Assembly (NCBI GenBank): GCA_965226495.1
Contig: OZ245365.1
Coordinates: 1,888,001-1,952,000 of the forward strand
Reading direction: 5' to 3'
Length of the DNA stretch: 64,000 nucleotides
Origin: Candidatus Marinacidobacterales bacterium
GTDB taxonomy: Bacteria; Acidobacteriota; Vicinamibacteria; Marinacidobacterales; DATDRI01
The translations under genes and the position numbers were made by a program. The stretch's first letter is position 1. Each line of letters opens with the position of its first letter. This document shows positions 19,490 through 57,638 of the stretch, one piece after another. The notes beneath the pieces are model-generated. The model was not told the DNA's origin, made no database searches, and saw only the letters and a list, made by a program, of their open reading frames with translations.

Positions 19490-19572
19490 TCGGCTTCATC
19501 AGCGATCCCACGTCATTTTGCCATGGGGTAGTCCTTCGAAGTAGCCCGGCAACATTTGATTCCTTCGAAAAA

Positions 19573-19660: not shown

Positions 19661-19833
19661 TGGGTTGTCCCTCGTCATTATTGATCCGGAAACGACCTCG
19701 GCCTACGTGAAACTGCGAAGAGCGAGGCGGCCGGGGTCGATGAGTGCGAGATAATCCTAGGATCGCACCCACAGGTTCAAGCCATTGAGTGCGTCGTTGT
19801 TAAAGGGATCGAGCTGAGCGACGAAGGACGGCT

Positions 19834-22929: not shown

Positions 22930-24037
22930 GGCGTTGGTGCACGAATCGCTCTTGACTCCGGCAAGCGCTTCGACTCAGCTTCTCGATGAAGATCGAGGAG
23001 ATGAACCCATGGCGGCGCGCAAGTCCCCAGAGTGAACCGCAAATACAAGACGAAGTACCGCGTGACCAACTGGCGGGAGTACGAGCGCGGCCTCAGGAGC
23101 CGTGGCGACATCACTGTCTGGTTCAGCGAGGAGGCGGTCGAAGCTTGGACGCCACCGAAGAACGGCCGCCGCGGTGGCCAGCCGCGCTACTCGAATCTGG
23201 CAATCGTGACGGCGTTGACGTTGCGCATGGTCTTTCACCTTCCGCTCCGACAGACCGAGGGGTTCCTCGACTCGTTGTTGCGGTTGATGGAGCTCGACCT
23301 GAAAGCGCCGGACCACACCACGCTGTCGCGGCGGAACAAAGACGTCGACGTGTCTTCGCCTACCATGGTGCATGATGGCCCGATTCAGCTGATCGTCGAT
23401 TCCACGGGACTGAAGATCTCGGGTGCCGGCGAGTGGCACGCCCACAGGCACAAGAGCTCGAAGGCGCGTCGAGTATGGCGGAAGCTGCATGTTGGCGTGG
23501 ATGACGACGGCTTCATCGTGGCGGCGAAGCTCACGAAGAGCAGCGAGGACGATCCGTCCACCGTCCCGGAGCTTCTGGAACAGGTCGACTCTCCAATCCA
23601 GCGCTTCACGGCCGATGGAGCCTACGATACGCGCTCAGTGTACGAGTTGCTCGGCGAGGTCGGCACCGCGGATATCAAGATCGTGATCCCACCTCGACGA
23701 GGGGCGGTGCCTTCGGGCTGCGCCGAGGGCACGTGGGCGCAGGGGAACGCGACCCTCGAGACGATTCGCAAAGTCGGGCGCCAAGGCTGGCAGCGGGAGT
23801 CACGGTATCGCCGACAGGGTGCAGTCGAGAATCTTTTCTTCAGGTACAAGCGGACGCTCGGAGACAGCCTTCGCGCGTGCGGCTACGAATCGCAGAAGCG
23901 GGAGGCAAGGATCCGGTGCAACGTATTGAACCGGATGGCTCAGCTGGGCAAGCCTGAGTCCCAAGCGATCGGCGGGGAGTAAGTCGGGCCGCCAAAAGGT
24001 TCCGTGCGTGTCCCGAACTGATTCATGCACCAACGCC
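22930..24037 (+). mobile_element. IS5-family (IS903 group) insertion sequence
   Basis: 18-bp IRs ggcgttggtgcacgaatc (22930) and gattcatgcaccaacgcc (24020-24037); no target duplication visible. Confidence 0.9.
23032..23982 (+). CDS. IS903-group transposase
   Basis: YRVTNWREYE.GLRSRGDIT, LPLRQTEG, PDHTTLSRR, DSTGLK, WRKLH, ADGAYD. Confidence 0.93.
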   Translation: MNRKYKTKYRVTNWREYERGLRSRGDITVWFSEEAVEAWTPPKNGRRGGQPRYSNLAIVTALTLRMVFHLPLRQTEGFLDSLLRLMELDLKAPDHTTLSRRNKDVDVSSPTMVHDGPIQLIVDSTGLKISGAGEWHAHRHKSSKARRVWRKLHVGVDDDGFIVAAKLTKSSEDDPSTVPELLEQVDSPIQRFTADGAYDTRSVYELLGEVGTADIKIVIPPRRGAVPSGCAEGTWAQGNATLETIRKVGRQGWQRESRYRRQGAVENLFFRYKRTLGDSLRACGYESQKREARIRCNVLNRMAQLGKPESQAIGGE

Positions 24038-25004: not shown

Positions 25005-25795
25005 GGATAGGAAATTTCATACGTGTCCGTCCCCGGTCCGCTCGAAATTTCCCCGCTGGGAAGGGGCTGTGCCGTCCGAGTGAGTCCTGGTGAGGGTAGC
25101 AGAGCTCGAGCAATCAGGGCAAGGCGGTTGAGAGGTGTCTCCCGCCGGGGGGATGGAAGTGAAGAAACACTCCGAGCGTTCTCGTGTCGGGGTATTCGGA
25201 CAAGTGGGTTTTTCGGAAGTCAGTGGCTAGGGCTCGGGTGGCGAGCGCGAGTCGCTTTTTCTTATTTCGAGATGAGCCAAAATTTTCCGAATCACCTTGT
25301 GCTCGGTAATGAAGGCGATGACGCGATAGGTACCCCCGCAGTCGCACCGGAGAGGGTCGGTCTGATGAACGCGCCTGATGAGCTTGATGAGCTGTGCCCA
25401 TCTTTTTCTGAGCGCGGCGCGCTTTTTTGGAGGACAGCTTCGGCTCAGAGTCGGCTTTGGGGTTTTGTTGTCCGGTGAGCGATTGCAGGGGGCGGTTTTT
25501 CCTTTTTCGAAAGGCGCGCGCTCTCGAGGAGTAGGCGCCCATGTAGTGGACGCCGTGTTGGCGAGGCTTGGGGATTTGGGTGAGGACTCGGGCCAGAAAC
25601 TCGAAGACATCGAGGGTCTCGCCTTGCGGATGAGAAGCGAGGGGGGTCGTCATGTGAGCCTTTCGCTTCATAGAAGAGCGTCTTTGCGCCCGGTGTCCAG
25701 TGAATGCGAGACAGGCTGAGGGGGCAGCGAAGTAGGTCCGGCAGAGGCGCTCGAGCCCTTCGGTGTTCTGAGGCCAAACGGTCACGGATGTGTCG
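25005..25795 (-). mobile_element. 5'-truncated ISCR/IS91 copy (transposase 3' part + oriIS)
   Basis: Near-identical direct repeat of 26607-27395, with a 1-bp deletion near 25737. Confidence 0.85.
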
Positions 25796-26003
25796 CTCGT
25801 CCCTTTACCGGGCAGGGTTGATGTGCGGCTTCCTCGCCGCCCCGCCGGGTCCGATCAGGAGGGTTTCCGTCACGATGGCTCTACATCATGCTTCCCCCCT
25901 CCCAGGACTTTCCCTGGCGCAATGAGACCTGACCCCCGGCCCGGTGTCCCCCCATTCTCGGCGTAGGCGCGACCCTCTGCAGCGTGCGGCGGCCCTCGCC
26001 CCA

Positions 26004-26474
26004 CTACCAGACGAAAAACGCGCCGCCATCTAGGAACGCGACCAGCTTTCGAACGAACTCCTCGTGCAGCTCAAGTCCCCCGCTTGCCTCTTCGTCACTG
26101 AGCCACTCACCCGTATCTTGGAAGAAGAAATCCTTGATGCTCTGGCTCAGCTTGCGTACAACCTCAGCTTCCTTCTCCTGCCTCCGCGGATCGGCAAGCG
26201 CCCGCCGCAAGGCTTTCGCAAGTTCGATAGCATCAGTCTGGGTGACTTCTTGGCCATCGTTTGTATTGTAGCCTCCATTCCACCGCCGCCTCGACCGACC
26301 CCGTGGCGCCGTGGTACCAAGGGGCGTCCATCCGTACTCCCTTGCAAGAGCCTGATAGAAATCCCATGGTCCACCTCGAATGTTCAGGGCGTCCCCTTGT
26401 CGCCTCTTGAAATCAAAGCTCACGGTCGTGTCGTCACGAAGGCACGTTTCACTCTTTAGACTCGCTCTCGACAA
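26004..26474 (-). CDS. Hypothetical protein between the two ISCR copies
   Basis: Protein-like ORF (LAREYGWTPLGT, YNTNDGQEV, FLDGGAFFVW); start uncertain. Confidence 0.6.
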   Translation of the reverse strand: MSRASLKSETCLRDDTTVSFDFKRRQGDALNIRGGPWDFYQALAREYGWTPLGTTAPRGRSRRRWNGGYNTNDGQEVTQTDAIELAKALRRALADPRRQEKEAEVVRKLSQSIKDFFFQDTGEWLSDEEASGGLELHEEFVRKLVAFLDGGAFFVW

Positions 26475-26606
26475 GCGATTCTTCCGTCACGACCTCCATC
26501 GATCCCGCGGGCTCATCGTCCTCACCGAAGTCAATCTCCTCGCCAGCCTTGAGCTTCTGATGGATGGCAAACTCCTCGTCCGTTAGTTCCACGTCGCTCT
26601 CGAAAA

Positions 26607-27860
26607 GGATAGGAAATTTCATACGTGTCCGTCCCCGGTCCGCTCGAAATTTCCCCGCTGGGAAGGGGCTGTGCCGTCCGAGTGAGTCCTGGTGAGGGTA
26701 GCAGAGCTCGAGCAATCAGGGCAAGGCGGTTGAGAGGTGTCTCCCGCCGGGGGGATGGAAGTGAAGAGACACTCCGGGCGTTCTCGTGTCGGGGTATTCG
26801 GACAAGTGGGTTTTTCGGAAGTCAGTGGCTAGAGCTAGGGTGGCGAGCGCGAGTCGCTTTTTCTTATTTCGAGATGAGCTAAGATTTTCCGAATCACCTT
26901 GTGCTCGGTAATGAAGGCGATGACGCGATAGGTGCCTCCGCAGTCGCACCGGAGAGGGTCGGTCTGATGAACGCGCCTGATGAGCTTGATGAGCTGTGCC
27001 CATCTTTTTCTGAGCGCGGCGCGCTTTTTGGAGGACAGTTTCGGCTCAGAGTCGGCTTTGGGGTTTTGTCGTCCGGTGAGCGATTGCAGGGGGCGGTTTT
27101 TCCTTTTTCGAAAGGCGCGCGCTCTCGAAGAGTAGGCGCCCATGTAGTGGACGCCGTGTTGGCGAGGCTTGGGGATTTGGGTGAGGACTCGGGCCAGAAA
27201 CTCGAAGACATCGAGGGTCTCGCCTTGCGGATGAGAAGCGAGGGGGTCGTCATGTGAGCCTTTCGCTTCATAGAAGAGCGTCTTTGCGCCCGGTGTCCAG
27301 TGAATGCGAGACAGGCTGAGGGGGCAGCGAAGTAGGTACCGGCAGAGCCGCTCGAGCCCTTCGGTGTTCTGAGGCCAAACGGTGACGGATGTGTCGACGG
27401 AAAAGCCGCTATGTCGAAACGAATTGAGTAGCTCGATGCGTTCGTCACTCAAAAGGCCTTTGCCTTTCAGCAAATCAAGGATCTTGTGGCGAAATAACTT
27501 CTCCGCGGCGAAGGTATCGATGTAGGGGACAGGAATCCATTGTCCTTGTGCATCCCAAACCCCACGAGAAGCGAGGCAGTGGGCATGTGGATGTTGGTTC
27601 AGAACACTCCCAAACGTCTGTGGGACCACAACGACTCCGGGACGGGCGTGAGGATCGCCGAGACGGCTTCGAGCATCAACTCCTTGATGGTCTCATAAGC
27701 AAGGCGGGCCAGATCCCGCAGAAGCTCTCGCTGGCGCATGAAATAGGGTCTGAGCATCTTGGGAAGTGTAAATGTCCACAGACTATGGCCAACGTTTTCC
27801 AGCAGCTCGTCTTTAAGAAAACCAGCAAAGGCAGCGGCGCGTTTGGCGTCGCCGAAGTAG
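26607..27860 (-). mobile_element. ISCR/IS91-family element with degenerate HUH (Y2) transposase and oriIS
   Basis: WTFTLPKMLR, QTFGSVLNQHPHAHCL HUH motif, SGFSVD, RYLLRCP, YMGAYSSRAR; frameshift at ~27640; N-terminal Zn domain absent. Confidence 0.88.
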
Positions 27861-31485: not shown

Positions 31486-32922
31486 CTAGCAGCCCGGTGA
31501 AAAAGTCCCGATTCTGCTCACGGAGAAAGTTTGGTGGGCAAGTTCAAGGAAGATGTGATTCGGCGGAACGGCCAAGTTGAGACGCCCAATGGATTGCAGC
31601 GGGGCAAAACGTGCGCCTATGGTCGAGACGAAGCGCAATAAAGCAGCGATCAGACTGGCGTTGAGCTCCGCGTATTCCTTCGGCGTGGCCTTGCCGATGA
31701 GATTGCGCATCAGAATCCCGAGATTGAATCCGGCCACGTGCGTGAGGAGGCGCTTGAGTATATTTTCGTGTCTTCGCAAATGCGTTCGTCGCATGCCTCC
31801 CGCTTCGAGGTAGTGCGCGAAAGGTCGTTCGAGTAACTCGCCGCGACGGCGTATTAATCGCTTACCTCGAGTCCCGCGAATGCGACGTCGGTTCGCGTAG
31901 GTGGCGGCTTGCTCGGCCTGTTTGTCCTTCCATTTGCGGCCACCTCGCTCTGGCTCCGAAATGTAGCTCCGGTATTCTTGTTCGACCAGCTCAACCAGGA
32001 TGTCGTTGCCGTGATAGCCCTTGTCCCCGACCACTTCGCGACCCGCGTCTTCATGTATTCGTTCACAATATTCCGCGTTGTTCGCGAGCTCTTGCAGATT
32101 TGACTGCGCTTTTTCCAGCGTATCCGGTAGGCTCTTTGTGTCACCCTTCGCGCCTCCGTGAAGCGTCACGGCAATTACCGCACCTTCCCCGCTCATGTCC
32201 ACAGCATGCTCGGCTTTGTGCGCCATATCCGTGCCCCCGCTCTTCATTTTCATGATCTCCGCATCCGGCTCGTTCGGATTCACCCACTCCTTGTTCGACC
32301 CTTTCTTTGGCCGCTTCTTGTCCAACTTCGCAATGTCCGCTCGGCTCGGCTCTTCGATACCACTCTTGCGCGCAAGCTCCTTCAAATACGATTCGTAGCT
32401 TTCCCCCGTGTCTCGACGAACGATTGACCGAAGCGCCGCATTCGCTTCCAGCGTCGTCGCGTCCACACCCAGTGTCTTGCCATCTATCATCCCTCTCGAC
32501 GCTAGAATTTCTAGCACCCATCCAAATACAGATTCGTGAACTTCCAGCGGAAGTCGATTCCGTATCCGAGACAGCGACGAATGGTCCGGCGTTCGCTCTT
32601 CCATTCCAAGGCCAAGAAACTGGCGCAAAGACAGTGAGTCCGAACACCGCCAGCAGATCCCGCGCTCTGAATCGATGCGCTCAAAGTAGCCGATCAACAG
32701 CATTCGAAAATACACACCCGGCGGTATGCTCGGCCGACCTTGCTTCTTCGCGTAATACGGCGAGCATTTCGACTCCACAAACGAGTCAAACTCTTCCTCT
32801 CGAAGTACCCGCTCGAGTTCCTCATAAAAAGGGTGACCAGGACTCGACGCAACCGCATCGTGTGGAATCCATAAAGTCTCTTGGCGACTTTTCTTTTTCT
32901 TCTTCATCGACATGCGATGCAA
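31486..32922 (-). CDS. DUF772 + DDE transposase
   Basis: GRPSIPP, SERGI, PDHSSLSR, VDATTLEANA, GDKGY, ERPFAH. Confidence 0.9.
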   Translation of the reverse strand: MHRMSMKKKKKSRQETLWIPHDAVASSPGHPFYEELERVLREEEFDSFVESKCSPYYAKKQGRPSIPPGVYFRMLLIGYFERIDSERGICWRCSDSLSLRQFLGLGMEERTPDHSSLSRIRNRLPLEVHESVFGWVLEILASRGMIDGKTLGVDATTLEANAALRSIVRRDTGESYESYLKELARKSGIEEPSRADIAKLDKKRPKKGSNKEWVNPNEPDAEIMKMKSGGTDMAHKAEHAVDMSGEGAVIAVTLHGGAKGDTKSLPDTLEKAQSNLQELANNAEYCERIHEDAGREVVGDKGYHGNDILVELVEQEYRSYISEPERGGRKWKDKQAEQAATYANRRRIRGTRGKRLIRRRGELLERPFAHYLEAGGMRRTHLRRHENILKRLLTHVAGFNLGILMRNLIGKATPKEYAELNASLIAALLRFVSTIGARFAPLQSIGRLNLAVPPNHIFLELAHQTFSVSRIGTFSPGC

Positions 32923-32990
32923 TTTTACATCGTCATCGAATGAGTCTTCAGAGAAATATCGCGGCCGAATACGACTTTTTCAACGGGCTG
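31490..32990 (-). mobile_element. IS1182/IS5-like element with CTAG target duplication
   Basis: IRs cagcccggtgaaaaagtc / gactttttcaacgggctg, flanked by CTAG at 31486 and 32991. Confidence 0.9.
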
Positions 32991-34021
32991 CTAGTGATGG
33001 ATGCTACCGGCCGAGCAAGGCCATCGAGAGAACGAACGGACGACGCTCGCGGTCTCGCCGGAACCAGTACTTCACAAAGGCCGACTTTGCCCTGGTGGAG
33101 AAGAAGCTTAAGGCCGACTGGAGCCCAGAGCAGATCTCCGGCCACCTGCGCCTTCACGGCGAGCTCTCGATCAGCCACGAGACGATCTACACCCACGTTT
33201 GGCGGGACAAGGAGGCCGGAGGACATCTATACCGCCACCTTCGGTGCTCGCCCAAACTTAGACGCAAGCGCCACAACAGCTACGACAGCCGAGGCCGCCT
33301 GGCCGGGAAGCGTCACATCTCCGAGCGGCCGTCTTGTATCGACAAGCGCCGTGCCGTTGGCCACTGGGAGATTGACACCGTGGTAGGAAAAGACGCGCCG
33401 GACTGCGTCACCACGCTCGTGGAACGAAAGACGGGCTTTGCGCTGATCGGCAAGCTGTCCGACCGCAGCATGTTCGGCACTAGCCAGCGAACGAAGATGT
33501 TGCTCCGGCGGGTGCCGGAGCAGGTCAAGACGATCACCGCGGACAATGGCACGGAGTTCCACGACTACGAATCCGTCGAGGAAGCGACCGGCGTCAAGTT
33601 CTACTTCGCAACTCCCTATCACTCATGGGAGAGAGGCAGCAACGAGAACTTCAATGGCCTGCTACGACAATACCTGCCGAAGCGCACCAGCCAAGCAGCG
33701 CTCACGCAACGCCACTGCGATCGTATCGCAAACAAGCTCAACTCACGGCCCCGCAAGAGGCTCGGCTACCGCACACCGGAGGAACGTTTCCGTGGGCTCT
33801 AACGAATGGTGCGCTTCAAACTTGAAGTCACAAGGAGCTCCCCAGCAACTGCCGCTTTTCTCGAGGCACCTCCGCCCAACGAGTCCGACGGTCTCCATCC
33901 AGTGACTTAGCGGAACTCCAAGCGGCGAAACTCCCAGAAGAAAAATCTGACCTCAAACTACGTCCCGGAGGCATCGGGAGTGAGCGTATAGCCGAGAGCA
34001 TTGGCCGCACTTCGTAAACTG

Positions 34022-40318: not shown

Positions 40319-40561
40319 CCGTGGAAATGGCGCCTGATTGCCGTTACCGCTCCCTCGCCCGTGAGGACCCATGGCACCCCTCCTTCGTCGCGGATTAGAG
40401 TTCAAACTTGAGCCCCCAATATCAACTTAGCTTGGGACGAAATCATACGCGGGTCGCTGTCTGCGTTCAAGCTTTGCGGTCTTGCGGCTCGGGGACATCT
40501 TGGACACGGCTAACCTAGGTAAAGGTTACAGGAAATTATGGGACTCTGATGGTGGGCCGTG

Positions 40562-41224
40562 TTAGCGGGAGACGATTTCGAGAAGCGTCGTATCATCCAG
40601 CCGGTGCCCGCCTTCGAAGCTTTTCTCCTCGAACGGGACGCCGAGTCGGTCGAGGCGCTCTCGGAGCTCGTCGCGGCGTGACTGCGTGAAGAACTCGTCG
40701 CGCGTGCCGCCGACGATCGTCAATTGTATCGCGCGAAGGCGTTTCAGACTTTCGTCGTCCTCGAGCTCCGGCGGGAGGCTCTCCCCCCAAATGATTAGCC
40801 TCGCCGCGTCGACCGAGCCTCGGCACGCCCACCGCGCTGCGGTAGCCGCTCCTTGCGAGAAACCGAGGACGGTAATGTGCGCGGACGCGCCATGGATCCG
40901 AGAGAAAACCTCCGTCTTAACGGCATCGAGGTACTTCAGGTAATCACGCATCTCGTTTTCACGGTCCTCGCGGGTTATCCAGGAGGCACCAACCTTTTGA
41001 TGTGTCCCGTCCACATAGAACCGCGAAAGCGCCTCGGGAGCTACCAAGAGCCTTGTCCCGTCGTCGAGCACCGAGAGTCCTTGGACAAAGGGGGCGGCGA
41101 GCTCTCCGTACCCGTGGCAGACGAACCAGACCTCGGAGGGTTGTGCTGTGGACCCCATCGTGACGAAGCGTGCGGTGCGTTCGACGGTGACGTAGTGCTC
41201 GAAAGTGTTGCGGGAACGAGACAT
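40562..41224 (-). CDS. Phospholipase/carboxylesterase-family alpha/beta hydrolase
   Basis: HGYG, GFSQGA nucleophile elbow, GTRD, FEGGH. Confidence 0.9.
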   Translation of the reverse strand: MSRSRNTFEHYVTVERTARFVTMGSTAQPSEVWFVCHGYGELAAPFVQGLSVLDDGTRLLVAPEALSRFYVDGTHQKVGASWITREDRENEMRDYLKYLDAVKTEVFSRIHGASAHITVLGFSQGAATAARWACRGSVDAARLIIWGESLPPELEDDESLKRLRAIQLTIVGGTRDEFFTQSRRDELRERLDRLGVPFEEKSFEGGHRLDDTTLLEIVSR

Positions 41225-46559: not shown

Positions 46560-47168
46560 ATGGATTTAACTCAGAAACAACAAGCCGTTTTCGATTACTT
46601 GAAGGCTTATCGGGGCGAGAACGGGCGACCTCCTTCCTATGAGGAAATCCGCGAGGAGTTCGGCTTCGCCTCTTTGAACTCGGTGCGGAAGCATCTGCAA
46701 CAGCTTGAACGAAAAGGGTTTATCAAATCGCCCTGGGGGAACCAAAAAAGGGCCCTGGAGATTGTTTCCGACCAGCCGGAAGCGGCCGCCGCCGTTTCAT
46801 TGCCCCTGCTAGGTACGGTCGCGGCCGGTGGGCCTCTCGAAGTCTCAGAGGTTCCCGAGACCATCGATGTCCCTGAAGTTCTTATCGGTCGGGGCGAGCA
46901 CTTCGCCTTGAAGGTAACCGGCGACAGCATGGTGGACGACGGCATTCATGAAGACGATTTACTGATCGTGCAGAGGCGAGAGAGTGCCGAGCCCGGCCAG
47001 ACAGTGGTGGCGCTGGTTGAAGGCGAAGCCACCGTCAAGCGGTTCTACCGGCACGGGGAGCGAATCGAGCTCCGTCCGGCCAATCCGAATTACTCTCCCC
47101 TGATTGTGGGAGAGGAGGCAGTCCGCATCCGAGGAATCGTCGTCGGGCTGATACGAAAATATGCCTAG
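46560..47168 (+). CDS. lexA: LexA repressor
   Basis: PPSYEEI HTH, VAAG cleavage site, GDSM Ser, ATVKR Lys. Confidence 0.96.
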   Translation: MDLTQKQQAVFDYLKAYRGENGRPPSYEEIREEFGFASLNSVRKHLQQLERKGFIKSPWGNQKRALEIVSDQPEAAAAVSLPLLGTVAAGGPLEVSEVPETIDVPEVLIGRGEHFALKVTGDSMVDDGIHEDDLLIVQRRESAEPGQTVVALVEGEATVKRFYRHGERIELRPANPNYSPLIVGEEAVRIRGIVVGLIRKYA

Positions 47169-47479: not shown

Positions 47480-48331
47480 GTGATTTTCATCGGCACGAGC
47501 GGGTACGGTTATCACAACTGGTCTCCTAGCTTTTATCCATCGTGGTTGCTTTATGAAGACTACCTAGATTTTTACTCCGAACAATTCAATTGCTGCGAGC
47601 TGACATTCACCCGTTACCGGATGCCGACCGTGGAGGATCAAGAGAGTTTGCTTCGCCGCTCGGCAGGAAGACTTGTGTTTACCGTGAAGGCGCATCGTCG
47701 CCTGACGCATCAACGTCCACTAGAGACGAAGGACCTGAGCCTGGCCCATCATTTTGCTGCTTCGCTGGCTCCGCTTGTCCAAGCCCGGAAGTTGGGAGCG
47801 GTGGTGGCCCAGTTTCCTTTTTCCTTCATCAATAACCCTGAGCATCGTGCTTACGTCTGTCGACTCCGGGCGGCACTGGATGGGCTTCCGCTGATAACGG
47901 AATTTCGTCACGACAGTTGGTTCGACGAGGAGACGCTCCACTTTCTCCGAGGATGGGATATCGGTGTCGCGTGTGTGGATGTTCCGAAACTAGCCAAGCT
48001 TCCCGGTCCTCGTGCTCTTGTGACCTCCGAGTTGGGCTACGTGCGCTTCCATGGACGCAACGCCTCTCGGTGGTGGAAGTGGTGGGCGCCAAGAAGCAAA
48101 GATCAAGGTTACCGCTACGATTACAATTACCGCCGTCGTGAGCTGATGGGCTGGATACCCCGCTTGCGAGAGATCGAGAAGCAGAGCCAACACACTTTCG
48201 TCATCTTCAATAACCACTGGCAGGGCCAAGCGGTCATCAATGCTCAGGCGCTTCAGAAGATTCTGAATAAGCGGAACAGTTCGATCGCCACCGCCCGCCA
48301 GACGGTCGCTCCTCAGCTGCTAGCGGGGTAG
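47480..48331 (+). CDS. DUF72 (YecE-like) protein
   Basis: IGTSGY, FTVKAHRRLTH, QFPFSF, EFRHDSW, YVRFHGRN, FNNH. Confidence 0.9.
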   Translation: MIFIGTSGYGYHNWSPSFYPSWLLYEDYLDFYSEQFNCCELTFTRYRMPTVEDQESLLRRSAGRLVFTVKAHRRLTHQRPLETKDLSLAHHFAASLAPLVQARKLGAVVAQFPFSFINNPEHRAYVCRLRAALDGLPLITEFRHDSWFDEETLHFLRGWDIGVACVDVPKLAKLPGPRALVTSELGYVRFHGRNASRWWKWWAPRSKDQGYRYDYNYRRRELMGWIPRLREIEKQSQHTFVIFNNHWQGQAVINAQALQKILNKRNSSIATARQTVAPQLLAG

Positions 48332-48342: not shown

Positions 48343-48990
48343 GTGGCTCGCCAGAGTTTTGTCACCACCCGTCTCTCTGCCGATAGCAAGTTACGAGTCG
48401 TCGCTCCCTGGGGGGTTCCTCAAATTGCCGGGCGCCTAGTAGAGCTTTCCGGAACCGGAGCGACGGCGACGCTGACCGCGGCTTTCGGGCTGGTGCTCGA
48501 GGCGCAATGGAGGGGCGAGCCCGTCGCCTGGATCACATTGCCGTCGAGCACATTTTTCCCGCCCGATGCTGCGGCGGGTGGTATCGACTTGGATTCCCTC
48601 GCGGTCGTTCGTGCCCGTGATTCTTACACTGCGGCGCGATCGGCGATGCAACTCGTTCGCTCGGGTGGGTTTGGACTCGTGGCGATTGACCTCGGCCCGA
48701 AGCCGGCCCCCGCAAGCATGGGACAAAAGCGCGTCGAATACACGTCCATTCCCACGTCGCTGCTGACGCGTCTAGTCGGACTGGCCAAGAAACACGACAC
48801 CGCGGTCGTTGTCCTTACTGAAAAGCCGACCCATGCGAGCTCTCTCGGTTCCCTAGTTTCGCTGAGGGCAGAGGCTCGCCGGCCTCCAGCGGCTCCTTAT
48901 CGCATCGAGCTCTCGGTTCTCAAAGACAAAAGACGCGGCCCGGGACAAGTACATCGGGAGACTTGCCGTGGTCCGGCTGGCATGTGTTGA
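48343..48990 (+). CDS. imuA: ImuA / RecA-like accessory protein
   Basis: GRLVELSG, VAWI, FFPPD...GIDL, RSGGFGLVAIDL; directly upstream of imuB. Confidence 0.82.
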   Translation: MARQSFVTTRLSADSKLRVVAPWGVPQIAGRLVELSGTGATATLTAAFGLVLEAQWRGEPVAWITLPSSTFFPPDAAAGGIDLDSLAVVRARDSYTAARSAMQLVRSGGFGLVAIDLGPKPAPASMGQKRVEYTSIPTSLLTRLVGLAKKHDTAVVVLTEKPTHASSLGSLVSLRAEARRPPAAPYRIELSVLKDKRRGPGQVHRETCRGPAGMC

Positions 48991-50455
48991 TGTTCCGGCG
49001 TTCCCACTCCAACTCCTCCTCCGGGAACATCCGGATTGGAAGGAGTTTCCGGTCGCCGTGGTTGCCGAAGATCGACCGAACTCTCCTCTGCTCTGGGTAA
49101 ACGAGAAGGCTAGGCGAGCGCGCGTCCTCCCCGGGCAACGTTATGCCCAAGCGTTGTCGCTGTCGTCCGAACTAAGGGCCGGTACCGTTTCCCGTCATGA
49201 GATCGAAAAAGGCGTCGAGCTTCTCACCGATCGACTCCGTCATTTCACGCCGGAGGTGGAGCCGGGGCTCGACACGCCGGGCGTCTTCTGGCTGAATGCC
49301 CAAGGACTGGAGCGGCTCTACAAAAGCCTGGAGGACTGGGCGGGTGCGATCGGCAAAGATCTCCTGAAGGCTGGATTTTTATCCACCGTCGTCGTGGGCT
49401 TCACTCGCTTCGGGACTTATGCGGTGGCCAAGTCCATCCTAGGAGTGAAGGTCTTCCAGGATGCCGGTGAGGAAAACCGGGTTGCCCGCCGTGTGAAGCT
49501 GGATCGTTTGGAGATCGAGCCCGCGGTGCGTGACGCCCTGGATAAGCTCGGGGTTCGCACGGTTGCGGGTTTCCTCAAGCTTCCGGCCAAGGGACTCCTG
49601 AAGCGATTCGGCGTCGAAGCGCATCGGTTGTACCGTCTCGCCGCCGGAGATCTCTGGGCCCCTCTTCAACCTCATCCCGCCGTGGAGCCCCTCGAGCGCC
49701 AGTTCTTGCTGGATGCTCCGGACTCCGATTCCGAGCGCTTGTTGTTTCTCGTAAAAAGAATGCTGGACTCGCTTCTGGCGGAGTTGGTGCCGAAAAGCAA
49801 AGCGCTGACCGAGGTCGCGCTTCGCCTGGTTCTCGATCGCGAGGGAGAGTATGGAGAGCGGATTCGCACCGCGGCGCCGACCGTCGACAGCGCGCAGATC
49901 CTAGGACTCATCCGACTGCGCCTGGAGTCTTTGCGACTCGATTCGGGCGTGGTGGCGCTCCACTTGACCGTTTGTGGAACGAAGGTTCTCCCTGAACAAG
50001 ATCTTTTGTTCACCGAGAAACCGCGCCGCGATCTGGAGGCGGGCAGTCGCGCTCTTGCTCGTCTACGGGCAGAGTTTGGGGAGACGGTCGTGGTGCGCGC
50101 CCATTTGCAAAATAACCATCTTCCTCAGGCGAGCTTCCGATGGGAGCCCATGGAAAAAACAACCATCCCTCATCCTCAAAAAAAGAGCAGTCCTCGTCTT
50201 CTGGTGAGAAGAATCTACGAAAGGCCACTTCTCCTTCCACATCGGTCCCGACACGAGCCCGATGGCTGGCTCTTGCGCGGGCTCGAGCACGGGCCTGTCC
50301 AAAAGTTCGTCGGCCCTTACGTTTTTTCCGGAGGTTGGTGGGCGGGTGGCGTCCACCGCGAGTATTACTTCGTGAACATGCTTCGCGGAGAGGTGCTTTG
50401 GGTTTTTTACGATCGAAAGCGACGTCGCTGGTTTCTGGAAGGACGCGTCGAGTGA
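48968..50455 (+). CDS. imuB: ImuB, inactive Y-family polymerase
   Basis: PAFPLQ, HFTPEVE, LGVRTV, RFG, GGWW...REYY, WFLEG C-terminal signature. Confidence 0.9.
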
Positions 50456-53400
50456 CGTACGTGCCTCTCTGGTGCAAGACCAATGGCTCCTTCCTCGAGG
50501 GGGCGAGTCACCCGGAGGAGCTTGTCGAAGAGGCACAGCGTCTCGGCTTGCGCTCCCTCGCAGTCACCGATCGCGACGGTGTGTATGGCGTGGTGCGCGC
50601 CCATGTGAAAGCGAAAGAGATAGGTGTGCAGCTTCTCATCGGAGCGCAAGTGACGGTTGAGGACGATTCGGTCATTCTATTACTCGCTCAGAATCGTCGG
50701 GGTTACGCGAGTCTTTGCCGCCTCTTGACCGTTGGGCGACTCCGTTCGCCCAAAGGCGAGTCCTCGGTGAGTTGGGGTGAAGTTTACGAGCATCAGGACG
50801 GACTCCTTGCTCTTTGGGGAGGGGAGAGAAGTCTGTTGGTTGGGGAGCCGGATCCGGGGAGGGTTGCCGAGTCCTTACGGGAGGCTTTTGAGGATCGGCT
50901 CTACGCGATGGTAGTACGACATCGCCGTGACACCGAGGCGCCTCAAGAGGCTCGACTGCGCGAGCGTGCCGTGCGCCACAAGCTTCCTATCGTTGCCGCG
51001 GTGGAGGTGCTCTATCACACGCCCGAAAGACGGGATCTTCAAGATGTCTTGACCTGCATCCGTTACGGGTTGACGGTGCGGACGGCGGGCCGGCAAACCA
51101 AGCCGAACGCCGAGCACGCGTTGAGGACGCCTTTTTCTTTCGATCAGCTCTTCGCCGACGATCCCTCGGCGGTGACGAGGACCGAAGAGATCGCGGCGCG
51201 TTGTGATTTTTCACTGGACCAGCTTCGCTACCGTTACCCTGCCGAACGCTTACCGGATGGCACAACCTCTGCGGAATGGCTTTATCGATTAACTATGGAA
51301 GGTGCACGTCGTCGTTATCAGGGCGACGTGCCTTCCAGCGTGCTGAGGCAAGTCGAAAAAGAGCTTCGCGTTATCGAGGAGCTGGATTACTGCGGATATT
51401 TCCTGACCATGTATGAGATCGTGCAATTTTGCCGCGCAAATGAAATTTTGTGTCAGGGCCGTGGCTCGGCTGCGAACTCGGCGGTTTGCTACTGCTTAGG
51501 CATCACCGCGGTGGACCCGGTACGGATGGGGCTCTTGTTCGAACGCTTCTTGTCGAAAGATCGCAACGAGCCTCCGGACATTGATCTCGACATCATGCAT
51601 CAGAGAAGGGAAGAGGTCATCCAATTCGTTTATAACAAGTATGGTCGGGATAAGGCAGCGATGGTGGCGAATATTATCCGTTATCGGGCCCGCTCGGCGG
51701 TGCGCGACGTTGGGAAAGCTCTGGGACTTCCGGAGACCTCTCTCGACCGGCTGGCCAAGGTTCTCTCTCATTACGACGGGGTTTCCTCACAAGCGCTTCG
51801 TCATGCAGGCCTCGATCCGGAAATCCCGATCAATCAGCACTTGTTGAGACTGACTTACGAGATTCAAGACTTTCCGCGGCATTTGTCGATCCATCCGGGA
51901 GGGTTCCTTCTCGGCCACGAGCCGGTCCATGACATCGTTCCCATTGAGAATGCCACCATGGCCGACCGCACGGTGATCCAGTGGGACAAAGACGATATCG
52001 AGTCGCTGGGGCTCTTCAAAGTGGATCTCCTGGGGCTCGGTGCGCTCACTCAGCTCGACCTTTGCTTTCGCTTGCTGAAGAGACATCGAGGTATCGATCT
52101 CTCCATGGCTACTATCCGCAAGGACGATCCCGAGACTTTCGACATGATTTGTCGCGCCGAGACAGTGGGCGTCTTCCAGATAGAAAGCCGTGCGCAGATG
52201 GCGATGCTGCCCCGCCTCCGGCCGCGTCATTATTACGACCTCGTCGTCGAGGTGAGTATCGTGCGGCCCGGTCCTATCACGGGAGGGATGGTGCATCCTT
52301 ATCTTCGCCGGCGGAACGGAGAAGAGCCGGTGGAATACCCTCATCCGTCTTTGAAACCGGTGCTCGAGAAGACGCTGGGGGTGCCTCTCTTCCAGGAGCA
52401 AGTGATGCGCCTGGCGGTAGTGGCGGCTGACTACACTCCCGGTGAAGCCGATCAACTGCGACGCGACATGGCGGCGTGGCGACGCACCGGACGCATCGAG
52501 AAGCACCGCGAGCGACTGATTTCACGAATGCAGGCGAAGGGGATCAAGCCGGAGTTTGCAGAGAGGGTCTTCGAGCAGATCCGGGGTTTCGGCGAATACG
52601 GTTTTCCCGAGAGTCATGCAGCGAGCTTCGCCTTGGTCGCCTATGCCGCGGCCTATCTTTTGAGACATCATCCGGCCGAGTTCACCTGCGCTCTCCTGAA
52701 CGCTCAGCCGATGGGTTTTTATTCGCCGGCAACCATCATCGACGACGCCAAGCGGCGTGGCGTCGAGGTCCGCCCGGTGGATGTTCGTCTGAGCGACTGG
52801 GATTGCACGTTGGAGAAAATTGACCCCCTCACCCCGACCCTCTCCCCACAGGGGAGAGGGAGAAATTCGATTCCGTATGCGGTACGAATGGGACTCCGCT
52901 ACGTCAAGAGTCTCGGCGAGAGAGATTGGAAGCGTGTCGACGCCGCTCGTCGCAAACGGATTTTTGTTTCTATCGAAGACTTCGTTCGCCGGACTCGATT
53001 GAACGAGGGGGCTCTCCAAGTTTTATCCGAAGCCGGTGCCTTCGAGGGGTTCGGCAAGGTGAGAAGAGCCGCCCTCTGGGACGTACGCGGTCTGGCTCGC
53101 GAGCCTTCACCGACTCTGCCTCTCGAAAGCACAGAGGAAACTCCGGAGTTTCCGAAGCTCGACGATTTCGAGACCATCGCATGGGATTACCACGCGTCTT
53201 CACATAGCACCCGGGGGCATCCTCTGGGGCCCTTGCGAGAAGCCCTCCGTGCGCAAGGCCTACCGGATGCGGAGACGGTCTCGAAGATGAAGCACGGAAG
53301 AAAGATTCGTTACGCAGGATTGGTGATCTGCCGACAGCGCCCGGGGACTGCCTCCGGCGTCACCTTCATGACCCTAGAAGACGAGACCGGCTTCGTGAAT

Positions 53401-53580
53401 CTCGTAATTTGGACGAGAGTCTTCGAACGTTATGCGGTGCTGGTCAAGACAGCATCCTTTCTTGGCGTCACCGGCAAGCTCGAGGCCCGCGACAATGTCG
53501 TGCATCTCATCGCCGACGAGCTATGGGTGCCCAGTCTCAAAGTGCAACCAGAGCACGGGCGAAGCCGGGATTTTCACTAA
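50452..53580 (+). CDS. dnaE2: Error-prone DNA polymerase DnaE2 (ImuC)
   Basis: PHP domain ([12 protein letters not shown]), [37 protein letters not shown]-terminal SRDFH; GTG overlaps the imuB stop. Confidence 0.97.
52824..52860 (+). repeat. REP-like palindrome within the dnaE2 reading frame
   Basis: ccccctcaccccgaccctctccccacaggggagaggg, encoding [12 protein letters not shown]. Confidence 0.65.
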
Positions 53581-53696
53581 ATACTAAATAAGGACTCGTA
53601 CGACATCGGCGCTGCCACTCATCAGCCTATTGGGACCGTTGTGGACTCGCAGTATCCGGTTGAATTCTCGAGCCGCCTCGGTTAAACCTTCTGCCT

Positions 53697-53969
53697 ATGC
53701 GCGAGGTGCAGGCAGGCATGAAAGGGATCGTAGGCGCCTGCGTCGCGAGCATTCTGTTGACAGCGACGCTCGCAGCCCAGGAACTGTCCTCCCAATCGCG
53801 CCCCGCGGCGACGCAGCGAGGCGCGCCGCTGTATCGCAATCATTGCGCGCGCTGCCATGGGCTCCAAGGATTGGGTGGTACCGGACCGAGCCTGACTCGG
53901 CCGGTTCTGCGCCACGCCCGAAGCGATAAGGTGGAGCCCCAGCACGGCAGGAGCCGTGACTTTCACTAG
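53697..53969 (+). pseudogene. Truncated c-type cytochrome fused in frame to a copy of the dnaE2 tail
   Basis: Signal peptide, CARCHG, GPSL, then [13 protein letters not shown]. Confidence 0.7.
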
Positions 53970-54291
53970 CCGTCGGTCACGGAAATGCGACGCTCCTGCT
54001 CATCACGGGGAGCCCGAAAGCACCTCCCGCAAGAACTCTTTGACACCCTTCCCGCCCGTGAGACGAAGAAGAATAGGGCCATCACTCGAAACATCCAGCT
54101 CGAACTTTAGGAACGGACAGCATTGACGTTCGAGGCCGAGATGAACTGGAGCCCCAGCACGGCAGGAGCCGACTTTCCTAGCCGTCGGTCACGGAAATGC
54201 GACGCTCCTGCTCATCACGGGGAGCCCGAAAGCACCTCCCGCAAGAACTCTTTGACACCCTTCCCGCCCGTGAGACGAAGAAGAATAGGGC
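53932..54291. repeat. ~145-bp direct duplication (53932-54080 / 54147-54291) including a dnaE2 3'-end copy
   Basis: Direct sequence comparison; the second copy has small deletions in the SRDFH codons. Confidence 0.85.
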
Positions 54292-54681
54292 GGGTAAAGC
54301 GAATTCATAACCCGCAGGAAGCTCGCGAATCTCCTCGACTGCGGATCGCAGCTGTCCCATCAATGCTTGGTGACGCTCTTGCTGCTCGGCGTTTAACGCC
54401 TGCCGTTCGCAGGCGAAAGAGGGTTCGGCCTCGATGGCTACTTCCCCTTCATCTTGTTCTGGCGGCTCAGAGTCGGTCCGGGGATGTGCCAGCGCTCGCA
54501 CGAGGGCGAGAGCTCGCGATTGCGTGTCCTCGTCGCTTAGGAGGGCCTGACAATAGGTGCACGTGCACTCATCGAGCCGACTTTGGATTCCCGCATCCAC
54601 CCGTTCCGCAGCCCAACTGAACATACCCAAGCTCAACACTCCGAAGGCGACCAGCGCCAACCACTTCAAGCTTTGCGTCAT
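54003..54681 (-). pseudogene. Small Cys-containing putative metal-binding protein, disrupted by deletion/duplication
   Basis: N-part CTCTYC, FAC...ELPAGYEFALP; C-terminus LERQCCPFLKFEL...LRLTGGKGVKEFL found at 54003-54146. Confidence 0.6.
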
Positions 54682-54722
54682 TTCTCTCCTCCAATCTTGT
54701 CAGGAGAGGGCCGCCGTCGTTG

Positions 54723-55112
54723 CTAGATATCGAGCGCCACCAGGGCTGAGCACGGTGCCTGATCGTCTCTGCAGCGGCAGTTCTGGAGAAGCGCATTGAG
54801 CTCCTCGCGCATTGACTTCAGTAGTCCCACCTTCTCGTCGATACTTCGAATCTTCGCTTCCGCAATCGCTCGCACCTCGGCACCGCTGTGACGTTGCTCC
54901 TCCCGCAGCCGGATTAACTCCTTGATCTCCTTGAGGGTGAAACCGACTTCCTGGCTGCTTTTGATGAAACGCACCCGTCTCAACGCATCTTCCGGATAAT
55001 CTCGGTACCGCGACGCAAGTCGATTCGGCTTCCTCAGGAGCTCACGGCGCTCGTAAAACCTTATGGTCTGGACGTTGACGTTGGCCCTCGCCGCCATCTC
55101 ACCGATTCGCAT
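54723..55112 (-). CDS. MerR-family heavy-metal-responsive regulator
   Basis: MRIGEMA...TIRFYER, YRDY, GFTLKEIKEL, C-terminal CRC...C. Confidence 0.9.
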   Translation of the reverse strand: MRIGEMAARANVNVQTIRFYERRELLRKPNRLASRYRDYPEDALRRVRFIKSSQEVGFTLKEIKELIRLREEQRHSGAEVRAIAEAKIRSIDEKVGLLKSMREELNALLQNCRCRDDQAPCSALVALDI

Positions 55113-55128
55113 TTTTTCTCTCCCCCTT

Positions 55129-55160
55129 AATATGCATCCTATACCTAGGTATAGAGTCAA
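55129..55160 (-). promoter_or_regulatory. MerR-type long-spacer promoter with perfect palindromic operator
   Basis: Minus strand TTGACT, then CTATACCTAGGTATAG (55139-55154), -10-like CATATT after a 20-bp spacer. Confidence 0.75.
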
Positions 55161-55185
55161 GGACAAATTGAAGTTTTTTGGTGAT

Positions 55186-55266
55186 GTGCACTTGATCGCC
55201 GACGAGCTATGGACGCCCCCCCTCAAGGTGCAGCTTCAGCGCGGCAGGAGCCGGGACTTTCGCTAA
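55186..55266 (+). repeat. 81-bp diverged copy of the dnaE2 3' end
   Basis: Encodes [26 protein letters not shown], versus [26 protein letters not shown] at 53500-53580. Confidence 0.88.
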
Positions 55267-55285: not shown

Positions 55286-57434
55286 CTACTGAATGTAGCC
55301 CAGCGCGCGCAGCTGCTCCATCGTCTTAGCGTCGAGCTCGGGAGTGGTAGTTTCTGCTTCCACTTTGGGGCGGGACAGATATTTCTGGGCAATGTCCTTC
55401 AGTCGCTCGAACTCGGACAGTCGATTCGGCGATTGCTCTTGGCTCCACTCGCGGCGTCGGCGGTAGACTTGGGAACCATCGTCTCTGTCCGAGCCCAGGT
55501 CGAGAAAGGAATAGGTTCCATCCTCTCGAGTGTAGAGCTTTTTGTCGCCGCGCCACGCGGCGGTCGTGCGTTCGAGTTGATACGCGTCGCTCGAATGGCT
55601 GAAAGCCACGTCGGGGCCGCGGCGGGCGCCGGTCACCAAACCGAGCAAAGAGCGGCCGTCCATCGTGGGGGCCTGGATGTGGTTCAGTTCAAGAAGGGTC
55701 GGCAAGACGTCGACGAGTTGGACGTTTGTGGTGACGCGTCTCCCTTCGGGAAAGTGTGTCCGCCCAAAAAAGATGAGAGGGACTCGTGTCTCCGATTGCT
55801 CCAGCGTCGCACCGTGAGGCACCGTGAGGCCCTGCCGGAAGTTCTCGCCGTGATCGGAAGTGAATGCGATGAGCGCACGGTCCAGTACACCGCTGGCGCT
55901 TAGCTCGTTCATCAGAGCACCGAAGGCCTCGTCCACGTACCGGATCTCTCCGTCGTAGGCAGCAATCTCTTCGGTCGTTTGTTCGTCGTCGAACGCCGTC
56001 GCCCAGCCGTCGGGGTCTCCATAAGGAAAGGTGCGGGTCGATGAGGTGGGCGTAGAGTAGCAATGGTTCATCACGGTGGCGCTCGATAGCCGATTTCAAG
56101 CCGGCCTGCACGGCTCGGGCATCGCTCTGTGAAGAGCTGTCCAGGCTCCGATCTACGACTCGATCGAAACCGCTATGCAGGTTCGAGCTCCAACCGGCGT
56201 GCGCATTCGCGATGACACTCACCGTGACGAAGCCCGCGTCCCGGAAGAGCCGTCCCAGGCTCGGGATGCTCGTCGACAGCGCCTGGCCGTGCTCCCCGGC
56301 ACGGTGAGCATCGGGTGCCAGGCCCGTGAACAAAGAAGTGACGGACGGTTTGGTCCAAGTGGCCTGAGAGTAGCAGTTCTCGAAGAGGGTAGCGCTTCGT
56401 GCGAATGCCTCGAGGTTGGGGCTGGTTGGTCTGGAATACCCATATGCTGAAAGATGATCGGCCCTCAGTGTGTCCACGAGGTAGACGATGACGAGAGGAG
56501 CTTCCGGTGAGTGTTCGGCCACCAGAGGTGAGCCAAGGTAGTAGACCCCATCGGCTTCGTCGGTCCTCATGGTGAAGCGGAGATCGACGGAGCGGCCTCC
56601 AAAACGAGTCAGCTCGACGGTGTGATCCGCCCATGCTTCGGTGTCGATGGCCCCTCGCAACAAGGACTCCCATGTGCCGTTGGCCCGGATGTCCACATCG
56701 AGGTTCGCCGGGGCGCCCCCCGCGCGGCGGGAGGTCGAGAAATGAAGTCGGCTCCGCGCCGCGAGCTCCAAGCCAAACACGAGCTCCGTGTCTCCACCGC
56801 CAAAAACGAAGCTCGGCTGAAGTGTGTCTCCGACGACCGCATCCTCGCGTACGGGCCCAACCCGACTGTAATCGGGCTCGTACAGAAGCTCGATCTCGTG
56901 AAGCTCAAAGCCACCGGAGACGTCCATCGGTGCGAACACGAGGTGGGCAGCCGTCCGTTCGCCGCCAGATACGTTCAAAGTTCTGACGTCGATGAGGTAA
57001 ACATGCGCCTTTCCGTCCGTGAAAAGGCCGATTTTACGTTGAGGTTCCGTAGAATAGATGGAAAGAAGTTCCTCCGCCCTTTCGGCCGATCCCACGACGT
57101 TTAGCAGCAGATTCGCCGGCTCTTGTTTTGCCGGCGAGGCCGCGAGTTTCACCCTGATGTGGGCCACCGAGCTCAAGTCATAGCTTTTCTGGTTCCATAA
57201 CTTGGAGCCGCCGTGGAGAGTTCCGGTGATTGGGGTGCTACTCGTGAGGACGACCCGTGCCGACGTTCGGAGCTCGCTGCTTGCAAGGTAGGACTCGCTC
57301 CGCGTTGCGAGCTTGCGCTCGGGCAGTTTCGAATCGGCGAGATCGGTGAGGCGCGTTACCCTCGGTTTGGGGAGCTCGGGGGAACCGCAGGCGGAAAGCG
57401 ACACGATCAGCAGGATGACTACCCATCGGATCAC
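55286..57434 (-). pseudogene. Sulfatase-like hydrolase/transferase lipoprotein with frameshift at ~56030
   Basis: Lipobox LSAC, VDTLRADH, WTKPSV.SLFTG, DPH; second frame YDGEIRYVD, SDHGE, LRALGY. Confidence 0.82.
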
Positions 57435-57638
57435 GCGCCGGATTATACCGCAGTTCAAATTTGGTATAGCATAGGCTGCCGCAGGACCCATGTGTGCCTG
57501 TGACCCGAATTTACAGTCCATCCAGAACGAAACTGATGGTGGATTAGCCCACATGGGAGTGGAGTTCGGCGAGCCGGGAGCGCTGCCTTAACGGCGCGAA
57601 TCCTGAAACAAGCATCGAGACAAAAGGAGGAAAGGACA

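Follow-up and report, generated by a model that had tools for sequence, protein, structure and literature searches.

Why should the 3′ end of a DNA polymerase gene be repeated several times behind the gene itself? The question is raised by a 64,000 nt stretch of the genome of a Candidatus Marinacidobacterales bacterium (assembly GCA_965226495.1, contig OZ245365.1, positions 1,888,001 to 1,952,000; referred to here as the window), in which the last 12–29 codons of dnaE2, the error-prone DNA polymerase gene of an SOS mutagenesis cluster, are present four times, all on one strand. The reiterated tails are interpreted here, with a probability of about 0.6, as scars of sequential displacement of the dnaE2 end by one-sided homologous recombination, either homology-facilitated illegitimate recombination (HFIR) or an equivalent process.

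The four copies are named A, B, B′ and C in their order along the strand and are listed with the surrounding features in Table 1. The start of a cytochrome c gene lies between A and B, a 3′ fragment of a gene designated X between B and B′, and the main copy of X with a merR gene between B′ and C; a sulfatase gene follows C. The junctions of the cytochrome c fragment with tail B and of the X fragment with tail B′ are called J1 and J2. The original prediction had described three versions of the tail, one of them locally duplicated, at coordinates that are confirmed, with the start of C plausibly at 55180 (GGTGATGTGCAC compared with the GGTGTCGTGCAC-type sequence of relatives) and B′ at 54148–54181. 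When the last 60 residues of DnaE2 were compared with the whole window by tblastn, the E-values were 4e-10 for C, 1.4e-5 for B and 0.28 for B′, and all other matches had E ≥ 0.5. These values put C and B far outside what chance would give, and B′ is backed by its identical flank. B and B′ are part of a larger direct repeat (53928–54079 versus 54143–54291), the final 114 nt of which are 100% identical (repeat family D1); the proposal that B′ is a local duplicate of B was borne out, while the 114 identical bases do not allow the pair to be counted as a separate diverged version. Tail B′ reads ...GRSRLS-stop in place of ...GRSRDFH-stop and is no longer a valid DnaE2 ending. A motif match at 40526–40615 has no upstream similarity and was counted as chance.

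In every copy the similarity halts at the stop codon (plus 1–2 nt; to within one base in the window), and the sequence beyond is unrelated, as would be expected if each tail came with its own downstream DNA. Identity between tail copies, both in the window and at the other loci described below, is about 74–95%, and tails A, B and C differ from each other by 17–26%. All three match the type of the closest database DnaE2 proteins (P0006 among them) at 78–93% identity, suggesting that the donors were relatives. Over the last 247 residues of DnaE2, P0006 matches at 93% and P0007 at 89%.

The original prediction had staked itself beforehand on other genomes carrying downstream tail copies with variable cargo, and such copies are present. 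Genome contigs were scanned with the C-terminal 496 residues of DnaE2, and the best 80 of at least 595 confirmed matches were taken as related loci. The top matches among them are Vicinamibacterales metagenome-assembled genomes (MAGs), with identity to the window DnaE2 of at most about 70–77%. The dnaE2 end was readable in 78 of the 80 loci, and four of these 78 (L025, L052, L058 and L063) have downstream, same-strand tail copies that end at the stop. L025 (Nitrospirota) has a 103 nt copy, 78% identical, 1.2 kb downstream, with an adenylate cyclase-FHA gene as cargo. L052 (Hydrogenedentes, 347 kb contig) has a 249 nt copy, 95% identical, 2.9 kb downstream, beyond a PstI-type methylase and endonuclease pair; the endonuclease gene (13063–14029) is frameshifted and the methylase gene intact, owing either to decay of the restriction gene or to an indel of long-read sequencing. 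L058 (labelled Syntrophobacterales) carries BrnA and a truncated BrnT ahead of a 48 nt copy, 83% identical and 0.45 kb downstream. At L063 (Binatia, a 5.68 Mb chromosome-level record), a BrnT-BrnA pair and then an RHH-PIN pair precede a copy of 426–437 nt, 88% identical and 2.1 kb downstream, and there is also an internal 123 nt dnaE2 fragment (positions −413 to −291). Cargo differs between the loci, with no gene common to the inserts, and is of the addiction type (toxin-antitoxin or restriction-modification) in three of five loci. Pfam scans detected no recombinase in any of the five inserts (window, L025, L052, L058 and L063). The cargo units of L025 and L052 are complete, so these two loci cannot discriminate between models. 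Regular-expression matches in L006, L040, L043 and L053 lack upstream similarity and were counted as chance, as were blastn matches of 13–24 nt in 20 other loci (E 1e-4 to 1e-2).

A uniform search for tail copies (last 150 nt of each gene, same strand, ≤6 kb downstream, E ≤ 1e-3, match reaching the stop, window excluded) was positive for 4/70 dnaE2 genes versus 4/445 other open reading frames (ORFs) of at least 250 codons, an odds ratio of 6.7 (one-sided Fisher p = 0.014). This enrichment at dnaE2, resting on four loci, is suggestive. Among the four other positives, that of L043 is a paralogous repeat-protein family, and L004 (13483–15384) has a 65 nt tandem tail copy of a beta-lactamase-family gene. 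The remaining two, L061 (15906–21178) and L063 (15198–19106), are partial copies of 644 nt (94%) and 936 nt (95%) of genes without a Pfam family. The partial 3′ copies at L061, L063 and L004 show that tail remnants are not unique to dnaE2.

The 3′ flank of dnaE2 is highly variable, and the neighbouring genes differ nearly everywhere. Pfam scans covered 108 of the 122 ORFs in first or second position behind the gene (62 of 69 loci; the other 14 ORFs belong to seven loci already studied), and a recombinase was found at L045 only. In this Binatia MAG (11449–21446) an integron-type tyrosine recombinase gene begins 21 nt past the dnaE2 stop, on the same strand and with a good ribosome-binding site, and so seems to have been appended to the SOS mutagenesis operon. 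It is interrupted by an IS3 element, and is followed by same-strand small ORFs, spaced by attC-like repeats of about 102 nt (CCTAAC ... palindrome ... GAACGTTAG), and then by a group II intron reverse transcriptase gene. No dnaE2 tail copy was found within 10 kb at L045. A literature search, which missed most subscription journals, surfaced no report of dnaE2 as an integration site.

The way in which the copies differ is informative about their past, since decay in place would give mostly non-synonymous differences. Two null models were used: neutral change, with an expected synonymous fraction of 0.21–0.24 (null 1), and one copy neutral with the other changing only synonymously, with an expectation of 0.35–0.39 (null 2). 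Between window tails A and B, 9 of 11 differences are synonymous and 2 non-synonymous (p = 3e-5 under null 1 and 0.002 under null 2), and the L052 pair is similar, with 11 of 14 (p = 3e-5 and 0.003). The excess is seen under null 1 for A and C (10/19, p = 0.004; p = 0.13 under null 2) and for L063 (25/49, p = 5e-5; p = 0.054 under null 2), and weakly at L058 (5/10, p = 0.044 under null 1). The synonymous excess suggests that copies diverged as working alleles. At L063, the internal fragment is 92.7% identical to the dnaE2 of L058 and 87.0% to L063's own, and the working 3′ end is 90.6% identical to that of L058 and 88.0% to its own distal copy. On these comparisons, the copies resemble 3′ ends that belonged to functional dnaE2 alleles of related lineages.

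Five loci with very similar DnaE2 ends (L027, L065, L061, L058 and L063) display the site before and after insertion. In L027 and L065 it is empty, the dnaE2 stop being separated by about 28 nt from the stop of a convergent histidine-phosphatase gene. In L061, BrnT-BrnA lies cleanly between dnaE2 and the phosphatase gene, without a tail copy. In L058, dnaE2 is followed by BrnA and truncated BrnT, 26–30 nt of the phosphatase 3′ end, 46–48 nt of dnaE2 tail, 360 nt of other DNA and then the complete phosphatase gene. The order in L063 is dnaE2, BrnT-BrnA, about 75 nt of the phosphatase 3′ end, filler, the internal dnaE2 fragment, the RHH-PIN pair, the 437 nt dnaE2 3′ copy and the complete phosphatase gene. 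The L061 sequence 10901–12119 is colinear with 10931–12169 of L063, from dnaE2 through BrnTA to the phosphatase fragment (1.24 kb, 85%). Both flanking repeats of L058 and of L063 align to a single-copy target in L027 and L065, and mobility genes are absent. Across the L058 junction, the donor-like and the recipient-like sequence have at most about 3 nt in common; J2 of the window shares GAACT. The phosphatase fragments in L058 and L063 indicate that the insert was a stretch of an L061-type donor chromosome and not an element with its own ends. The Binatia-type inserted blocks are therefore donor chromosome stretches that were joined inside the recipient dnaE2 tail.

A recombination mechanism, an order of events and related-lineage donors can be inferred from these structures. 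DNA of a related lineage, with a dnaE2 3′ segment and the sequence that followed it in the donor, would have entered the cell several times. It would pair with the resident gene through conserved dnaE2 coding sequence, and an illegitimate join would attach its heterologous far end between a few dozen and a few hundred bases ahead of the resident stop. The new tail would become the working C-terminus, and the resident tail, with all that lies behind it, would be shifted downstream to decay. In the window, tail C with the sulfatase gene would represent the ancestral state, so that among the displaced tails C is the oldest. The next addition would have been a block made up of a B-type tail and the X-merR unit converging on it. 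The unit of tail B and the X 3′ end would afterwards have undergone local duplication, or have been brought in again from a donor of near-identical sequence, and X would have lost an internal segment. Tail A and the start of the donor's cytochrome c gene would be the newest arrival. The dnaE2 body is continuous with tail A, that is, the homologous anchor is joined to the newest block, and the truncated cytochrome c gene fits a donor stretch with a cut neighbour gene, although that donor arrangement would itself have to be deduced. The retained tails measure approximately 34–37, 42, 46–48, 81–87, 103, 249, 413 (the internal fragment) and 437 nt. Successive events that give dnaE2 a new C-terminal tail and leave the older one downstream had been predicted from the window, and this was right in outline.

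Several observations weigh against displacement by recombination. All eight junctions lie within the last 440 nt of a 3.1 kb gene, and three independent ones, J1 (−42), J2 (about −37) and that of L058 (about −46), fall at the same homologous place, the start of a variable linker between the VHL(I/V)A.ELW.P block and the invariant SRDF end. Random illegitimate joins alone would not produce such clustering. Strand exchange between diverged alleles might halt where identity collapses at the linker, and insertions with long flanking repeats might be lost again when these repeats recombine; a true site preference is also conceivable. Recombination between alleles that are 77–90% identical is inefficient. 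The identity of B and B′ over 114 nt is not that of an import from a diverged lineage, and needs local duplication or a very close donor. The proportion of synonymous differences is not significant under null 1 for L025 (9/25, p = 0.18) or for window tails B and C (3/7, p = 0.13). The window organism has no close relative in the sample (best locus about 70–77% identical) and its cargo was found in none of the 80 loci, so the donor arrangements proposed for the window stand as predictions.

The original prediction had looked to integrative elements, which often restore the 3′ end of their target gene. Islands mimicking the dnaE2 end would have accreted in tandem and later lost their integrases and most of their content. 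Direct repeats of a gene 3′ end around foreign DNA are generally known as the classic signature of an island, as at trmE (PMC8409611), and the inserts at dnaE2 are bounded by such repeats. The DnaE2 ending, conserved at 78/78 loci, would be a good target across a broad host range, the junctions cluster near the 3′ end with three at one homologous spot, and L045 has its tyrosine recombinase gene directly after dnaE2. However, 0/5 inserts contain or adjoin a recombinase, the extent of the repeats is not constant but varies from about 35 to 437 nt, the L058 and L063 inserts end in a fragment of the donor's chromosomal neighbour gene, L061 holds the same BrnTA cargo without any repeat, the L045 recombinase belongs to an integron with no nearby tail copy, and the window tails match the local clade and not a foreign type. 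Decayed elements are thus an unlikely source of the tails. Duplication in place, with the distal copies decaying where they lie and no dnaE2 sequence imported, is improbable to a similar degree. Insertions that lack mobility genes and lie between direct repeats of their target, 30 to about 420 bp long, have been documented, for the most part with restriction-modification genes (PMC2853133), and L052 fits this description. The B/B′ pair is best explained by local duplication, and in L063 the distal copy contains indels, with substitutions of a mixed pattern. Such a process would not account for the synonymous excess of A and B (p = 0.002) and of L052 (p = 0.003), which goes beyond one decaying copy, and a mechanical target duplication would not respect the stop codon, where the homology always ends. 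The L063 pieces are nearer to the dnaE2 of L058 than to their own copies, the phosphatase fragments of L058 and L063 would demand further duplications, and the repeats, except for B/B′, are 74–94% identical rather than near-identical resident copies.

If strain variants of the region downstream of dnaE2 had been strung into one contig, the whole structure would be an assembly artefact. The sequence probably comes from a metagenome or long-read assembly, frameshifts occur in the sulfatase gene, X and the L052 endonuclease gene, and the exact 114 nt identity of B and B′, with its small indels, could be a consensus or graph error. On the other hand, the window lies in a 6.34 Mb contig, the divergence among A, B and C is far above that of strain variants, the order of blocks is biologically sensible, and the same architecture is seen in four independent assemblies, including 5.68 Mb and 347 kb records; the copies overall are only 74–94% identical. 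Collapse of strain variants, named in the original prediction as a danger to it, is extremely unlikely. Somewhat less remote, yet still very unlikely, is a dedicated and unrecognised capture mechanism, in which the conserved dnaE2 end is singled out by a trans-acting enzyme or through some feature of the mutasome operon itself. The enrichment at dnaE2 (4/70 versus 4/445, p = 0.014), the clustering of junctions, the recurrence in at least four phylum-level groups and the addiction-type cargo at three of five loci are in its favour. It is opposed by the window tails, which share no core longer than about 5 nt, by the lack of a gene common to the inserts, by an enrichment based on four loci, and by the fact that ordinary recombination covers every structure seen.

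Displacement by one-sided recombination has precedents. Primary papers on HFIR reportedly deal with natural transformation in Acinetobacter, Pseudomonas stutzeri and Streptococcus pneumoniae, and with conjugation in E. coli. HFIR consists of one homologous anchor and one illegitimate join (PMC3240628). The dnaE2 loci resemble it in their dnaE2 anchor and illegitimate join, in the gain of foreign DNA without a mobile-element gene, and in the few bases shared at the junction (L058). They differ in that HFIR has been observed while the dnaE2 events are deduced from genome scars, in that the join falls inside the anchor gene, so that the gene end is duplicated and several rounds are stacked, and in that the donors are 77–95% identical and not nearly identical. 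C-terminal displacement in Rhs loci is said to have been described by Jackson et al. in 2009. For Rhs loci and the effector-immunity arrays of type VI secretion systems, PMC5361080 gives sequential or C-terminal displacement, with HFIR suggested as the mechanism. As there described, and as at dnaE2, the newest module lies beside the conserved gene body and older 3′ pieces and downstream genes are pushed back, with no integrase. The variable part of those arrays is a toxin tip and its immunity gene, and retention of the immunity gene is selected; at dnaE2 a conserved polymerase tail is repeated, the cargo is miscellaneous and there is no evident selective reason for retention.

Two other systems share features with these loci. 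Insertion of restriction-modification genes with long target duplication was reportedly described by Nobusato et al. in 2000. In insertions of this kind (PMC2853133), the direct repeats are longer than 30 bp, of variable length, and in some cases overlap a gene 3′ end. The restriction-modification pair of L052, between 249 nt repeats and without mobility genes, is comparable. The dnaE2 repeats differ in their 74–94% identity, synonymous bias and exact end at the stop codon, and in being up to four deep and mostly around cargo other than restriction-modification genes. Tandem accretion of cis-mobilisable elements is said to have been established in the ICESt1/CIME work. Accretion at the 3′ end of a protein gene is represented by the trmE islands (PMC8409611). 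As in those islands, repeated copies of the gene 3′ end enclose foreign DNA at dnaE2, and the functional gene has a complete end. Unlike them, the dnaE2 inserts have variable extents and donor gene fragments and are without an integrase, where islands need an integrase and fixed attachment sites.

Table 1. Coordinates of the SOS mutagenesis cluster, the dnaE2 tail copies and the DNA between them in the window.
Feature	Position (nt)	Strand	Basis or remark
lexA, first gene of the SOS mutagenesis cluster	46560–47168	+	Pfam Peptidase_S24 and LexA_DNA_bind
DUF72 gene, between lexA and the imuA-like gene	47480–48331	+	Pfam
imuA-like gene (RecA-related), ahead of imuB and dnaE2	48343–48990	+	weak Pfam RecA match, E=9e-5
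imuB-like gene (Y-family polymerase fold)	48968–50455	+	Pfam IMS
dnaE2, error-prone DNA polymerase, ORF from first ATG	50140–53580	+	Pfam PHP, DNA_pol3_alpha, finger, HHH_6, OB
Tail A, working dnaE2 C-terminal end	53500–53580	+	25/26 residues as in the tail of P0006, the closest database DnaE2
Block behind tail A: 116 nt spacer, then N-terminal 77 codons of cytochrome c gene (53697–53927), cut at J1	53581–53927	+	Pfam, sequence
Tail B, last 13 codons and stop, in frame with cytochrome c fragment	53928–53969	+	sequence comparison
Gene X 3′ fragment (...EFIS / LERQCCPFLKFELDVSSDGPILLRLTGGKGVKEFLREVLSGSP-stop), converging on tail B, cut at J2	53970–54147	−	comparison with P0002–P0005
Tail B′, local duplicate of B with 2 nt and 1 nt deletions	54148–54181	+	repeat families D1, D2
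Gene X, pseudogene of 187 aa cysteine-rich secreted-type protein, no Pfam family	54178–54681	−	P0002–P0005
MerR-family regulator, upstream of X, same strand	54723–55112 (ORF to 55226)	−	Pfam MerR_1, MerR-DNA-bind, MerR
Perfect 16 bp palindrome CTATACCTAGGTATAG	55139–55154		adjoins TTGACT hexamer on minus strand (55160–55155)
Tail C, 26 codons and stop, 27–29 codons with extended start	55180/55186–55266	+	tblastn E=4e-10
Sulfatase gene converging on tail C, two overlapping frames (55286–56074, 55689–57554)	55286–57554	−	Pfam Sulfatase 1–195 and 181–298 of 301

The DNA between the window copies is of mixed character. The ORF 53697–53969 is an N-terminal fragment of cytochrome c fused in frame to tail B; it matches positions 1–30 of 68 of Cytochrome_CBB3 and 2–41 of 90 of Cytochrom_C (Pfam), and the haem-binding motif is kept. 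In the main copy of X, the 3′ 114 nt are identical to 53966–54079 and are continuous with the 130 N-terminal codons of the gene. A loss of about 31 codons and a frameshift make this copy a pseudogene. Full-length relatives of X (P0002–P0005) are cysteine-rich proteins of 187–188 aa without a Pfam family, ending ...AEFISLERQCCPFLKFELDVSSDGPILLRLTG.KGVKEFLREVLSGS. Members of the family have CxCxxC and CC motifs and a hydrophobic stretch at the N-terminus; the cysteine motifs, together with the position behind a MerR regulator, make X a candidate metal-binding partner. Thus the cytochrome c and merR labels given earlier to this cargo hold, while the supposed metal protein (54178–54681, minus strand) is a broken copy of the 187 aa protein. 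Placement of cargo behind the SOS operon, also proposed, applies to the truncated cytochrome c fragment alone, since merR and X are on the opposite strand.

The merR ORF (54723–55226, minus strand) likely starts at an ATG at 55112. MerR-type promoters have a characteristic layout, on the basis of which the palindrome and the TTGACT hexamer are likely the operator and promoter of a merR-X unit. Tail C starts about 25 nt beyond the palindrome. The split sulfatase gene is either a frameshift pseudogene or the result of a sequencing indel, and is probably the ancestral neighbour of dnaE2. No tblastn match to the cytochrome c fragment, either part of X, MerR or either sulfatase ORF was obtained in the 80 loci, and neither a donor nor an empty-site arrangement for the window was found among them.

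No integrase had been noticed near the tails, and Pfam scans agree. The main ORFs of 45.5–64 kb and 39 non-overlapping ORFs of 0.6–45.5 kb were scanned, and no tyrosine or serine recombinase was detected among them; nor was an integron integrase (Pfam), or an attC-like repeat family at 50–64 kb. The nearest insertion sequence (IS) transposase gene ends at 33.8 kb, 20 kb from the tails. It belongs to a cluster with rve-type transposases at 7824–9080, 19834–20568 and 32912–33799 and DDE transposases at 23032–23979 and 31486–32919. An IS91-family (Y2) transposase gene (26835–27626, minus strand) has a 562 nt partial copy, 97.7% identical, 1 kb downstream (25233–25795), with an unassigned 155-codon ORF between the two, and is a second downstream-repeated 3′ part in the window (25114–27692). 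Rolling-circle mobilisation of the IS91 type by this transposase at 26.8 kb was rejected as a source of the tails, as it is 26 kb distant and would yield no tail repeats. An Xer/dif-type module was also set aside; inspection of the tails revealed no dif-like palindrome, and no formal search was made. No tRNA or tmRNA gene, and no Rfam family at the gathering score, was found in the window. No promoter-like site was predicted at 53.3–55.6 kb, and the sole terminator-like site in this region sits inside dnaE2.

Upstream of the tails, imuA-like and imuB-like relatives were found by tblastn in 48/80 and 57/80 loci. A DUF72 match occurs in just 2/80, there several kb upstream of dnaE2. The true start of dnaE2 is probably at about 50.45–50.47 kb, because close homologues span 1031–1041 aa. 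In a sliding comparison of 150 residues between the window DnaE2 and 71 full-length relatives (55–90% identical), L002 was best for windows starting at 326–776 and not later. The C-terminus is [SG][RH]DF[HRQC] in 78/78 readable loci and 114/120 database homologues, upholding the conserved ending that had been claimed. The near-invariance of this terminal pentapeptide (53563–53580 in the window) suggests a putative binding function. Whole-word literature matches to SRDFH, RDFH or SRDFR were all unrelated to the DnaE2 ending.

The dnaE2 tails are best filed as a known displacement architecture, now found at a DNA polymerase gene, for which no new kind of mobile element is needed. A larger claim, that the dnaE2 3′ end is a phylum-spanning gene-capture hotspot tied to the SOS mutagenesis operon, is unlikely. 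Two routes to such a hotspot are conceivable. A widely exchanged imuA-imuB-dnaE2 cassette could serve as a portable homologous landing pad that drags along neighbouring genes, often toxin-antitoxin or restriction-modification modules, or an unrecognised activity could be aimed at the invariant SRDF-coding end. If the hotspot were real, stress-induced mutagenesis and gene acquisition would be physically coupled.

These loci provide a multi-layered natural record of foreign genes added beside a conserved gene without mobile-element machinery, and relatives display the empty, clean and scarred states side by side. For genome annotation they are a caution that reiterated gene ends do not necessarily mean integrase-driven islands. 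If the modest enrichment at dnaE2 holds, accessory genes, toxin-antitoxin and restriction-modification modules among them, would enter preferentially beside the SOS operon, and loci of stress-induced mutagenesis would be linked to horizontal gene gain.

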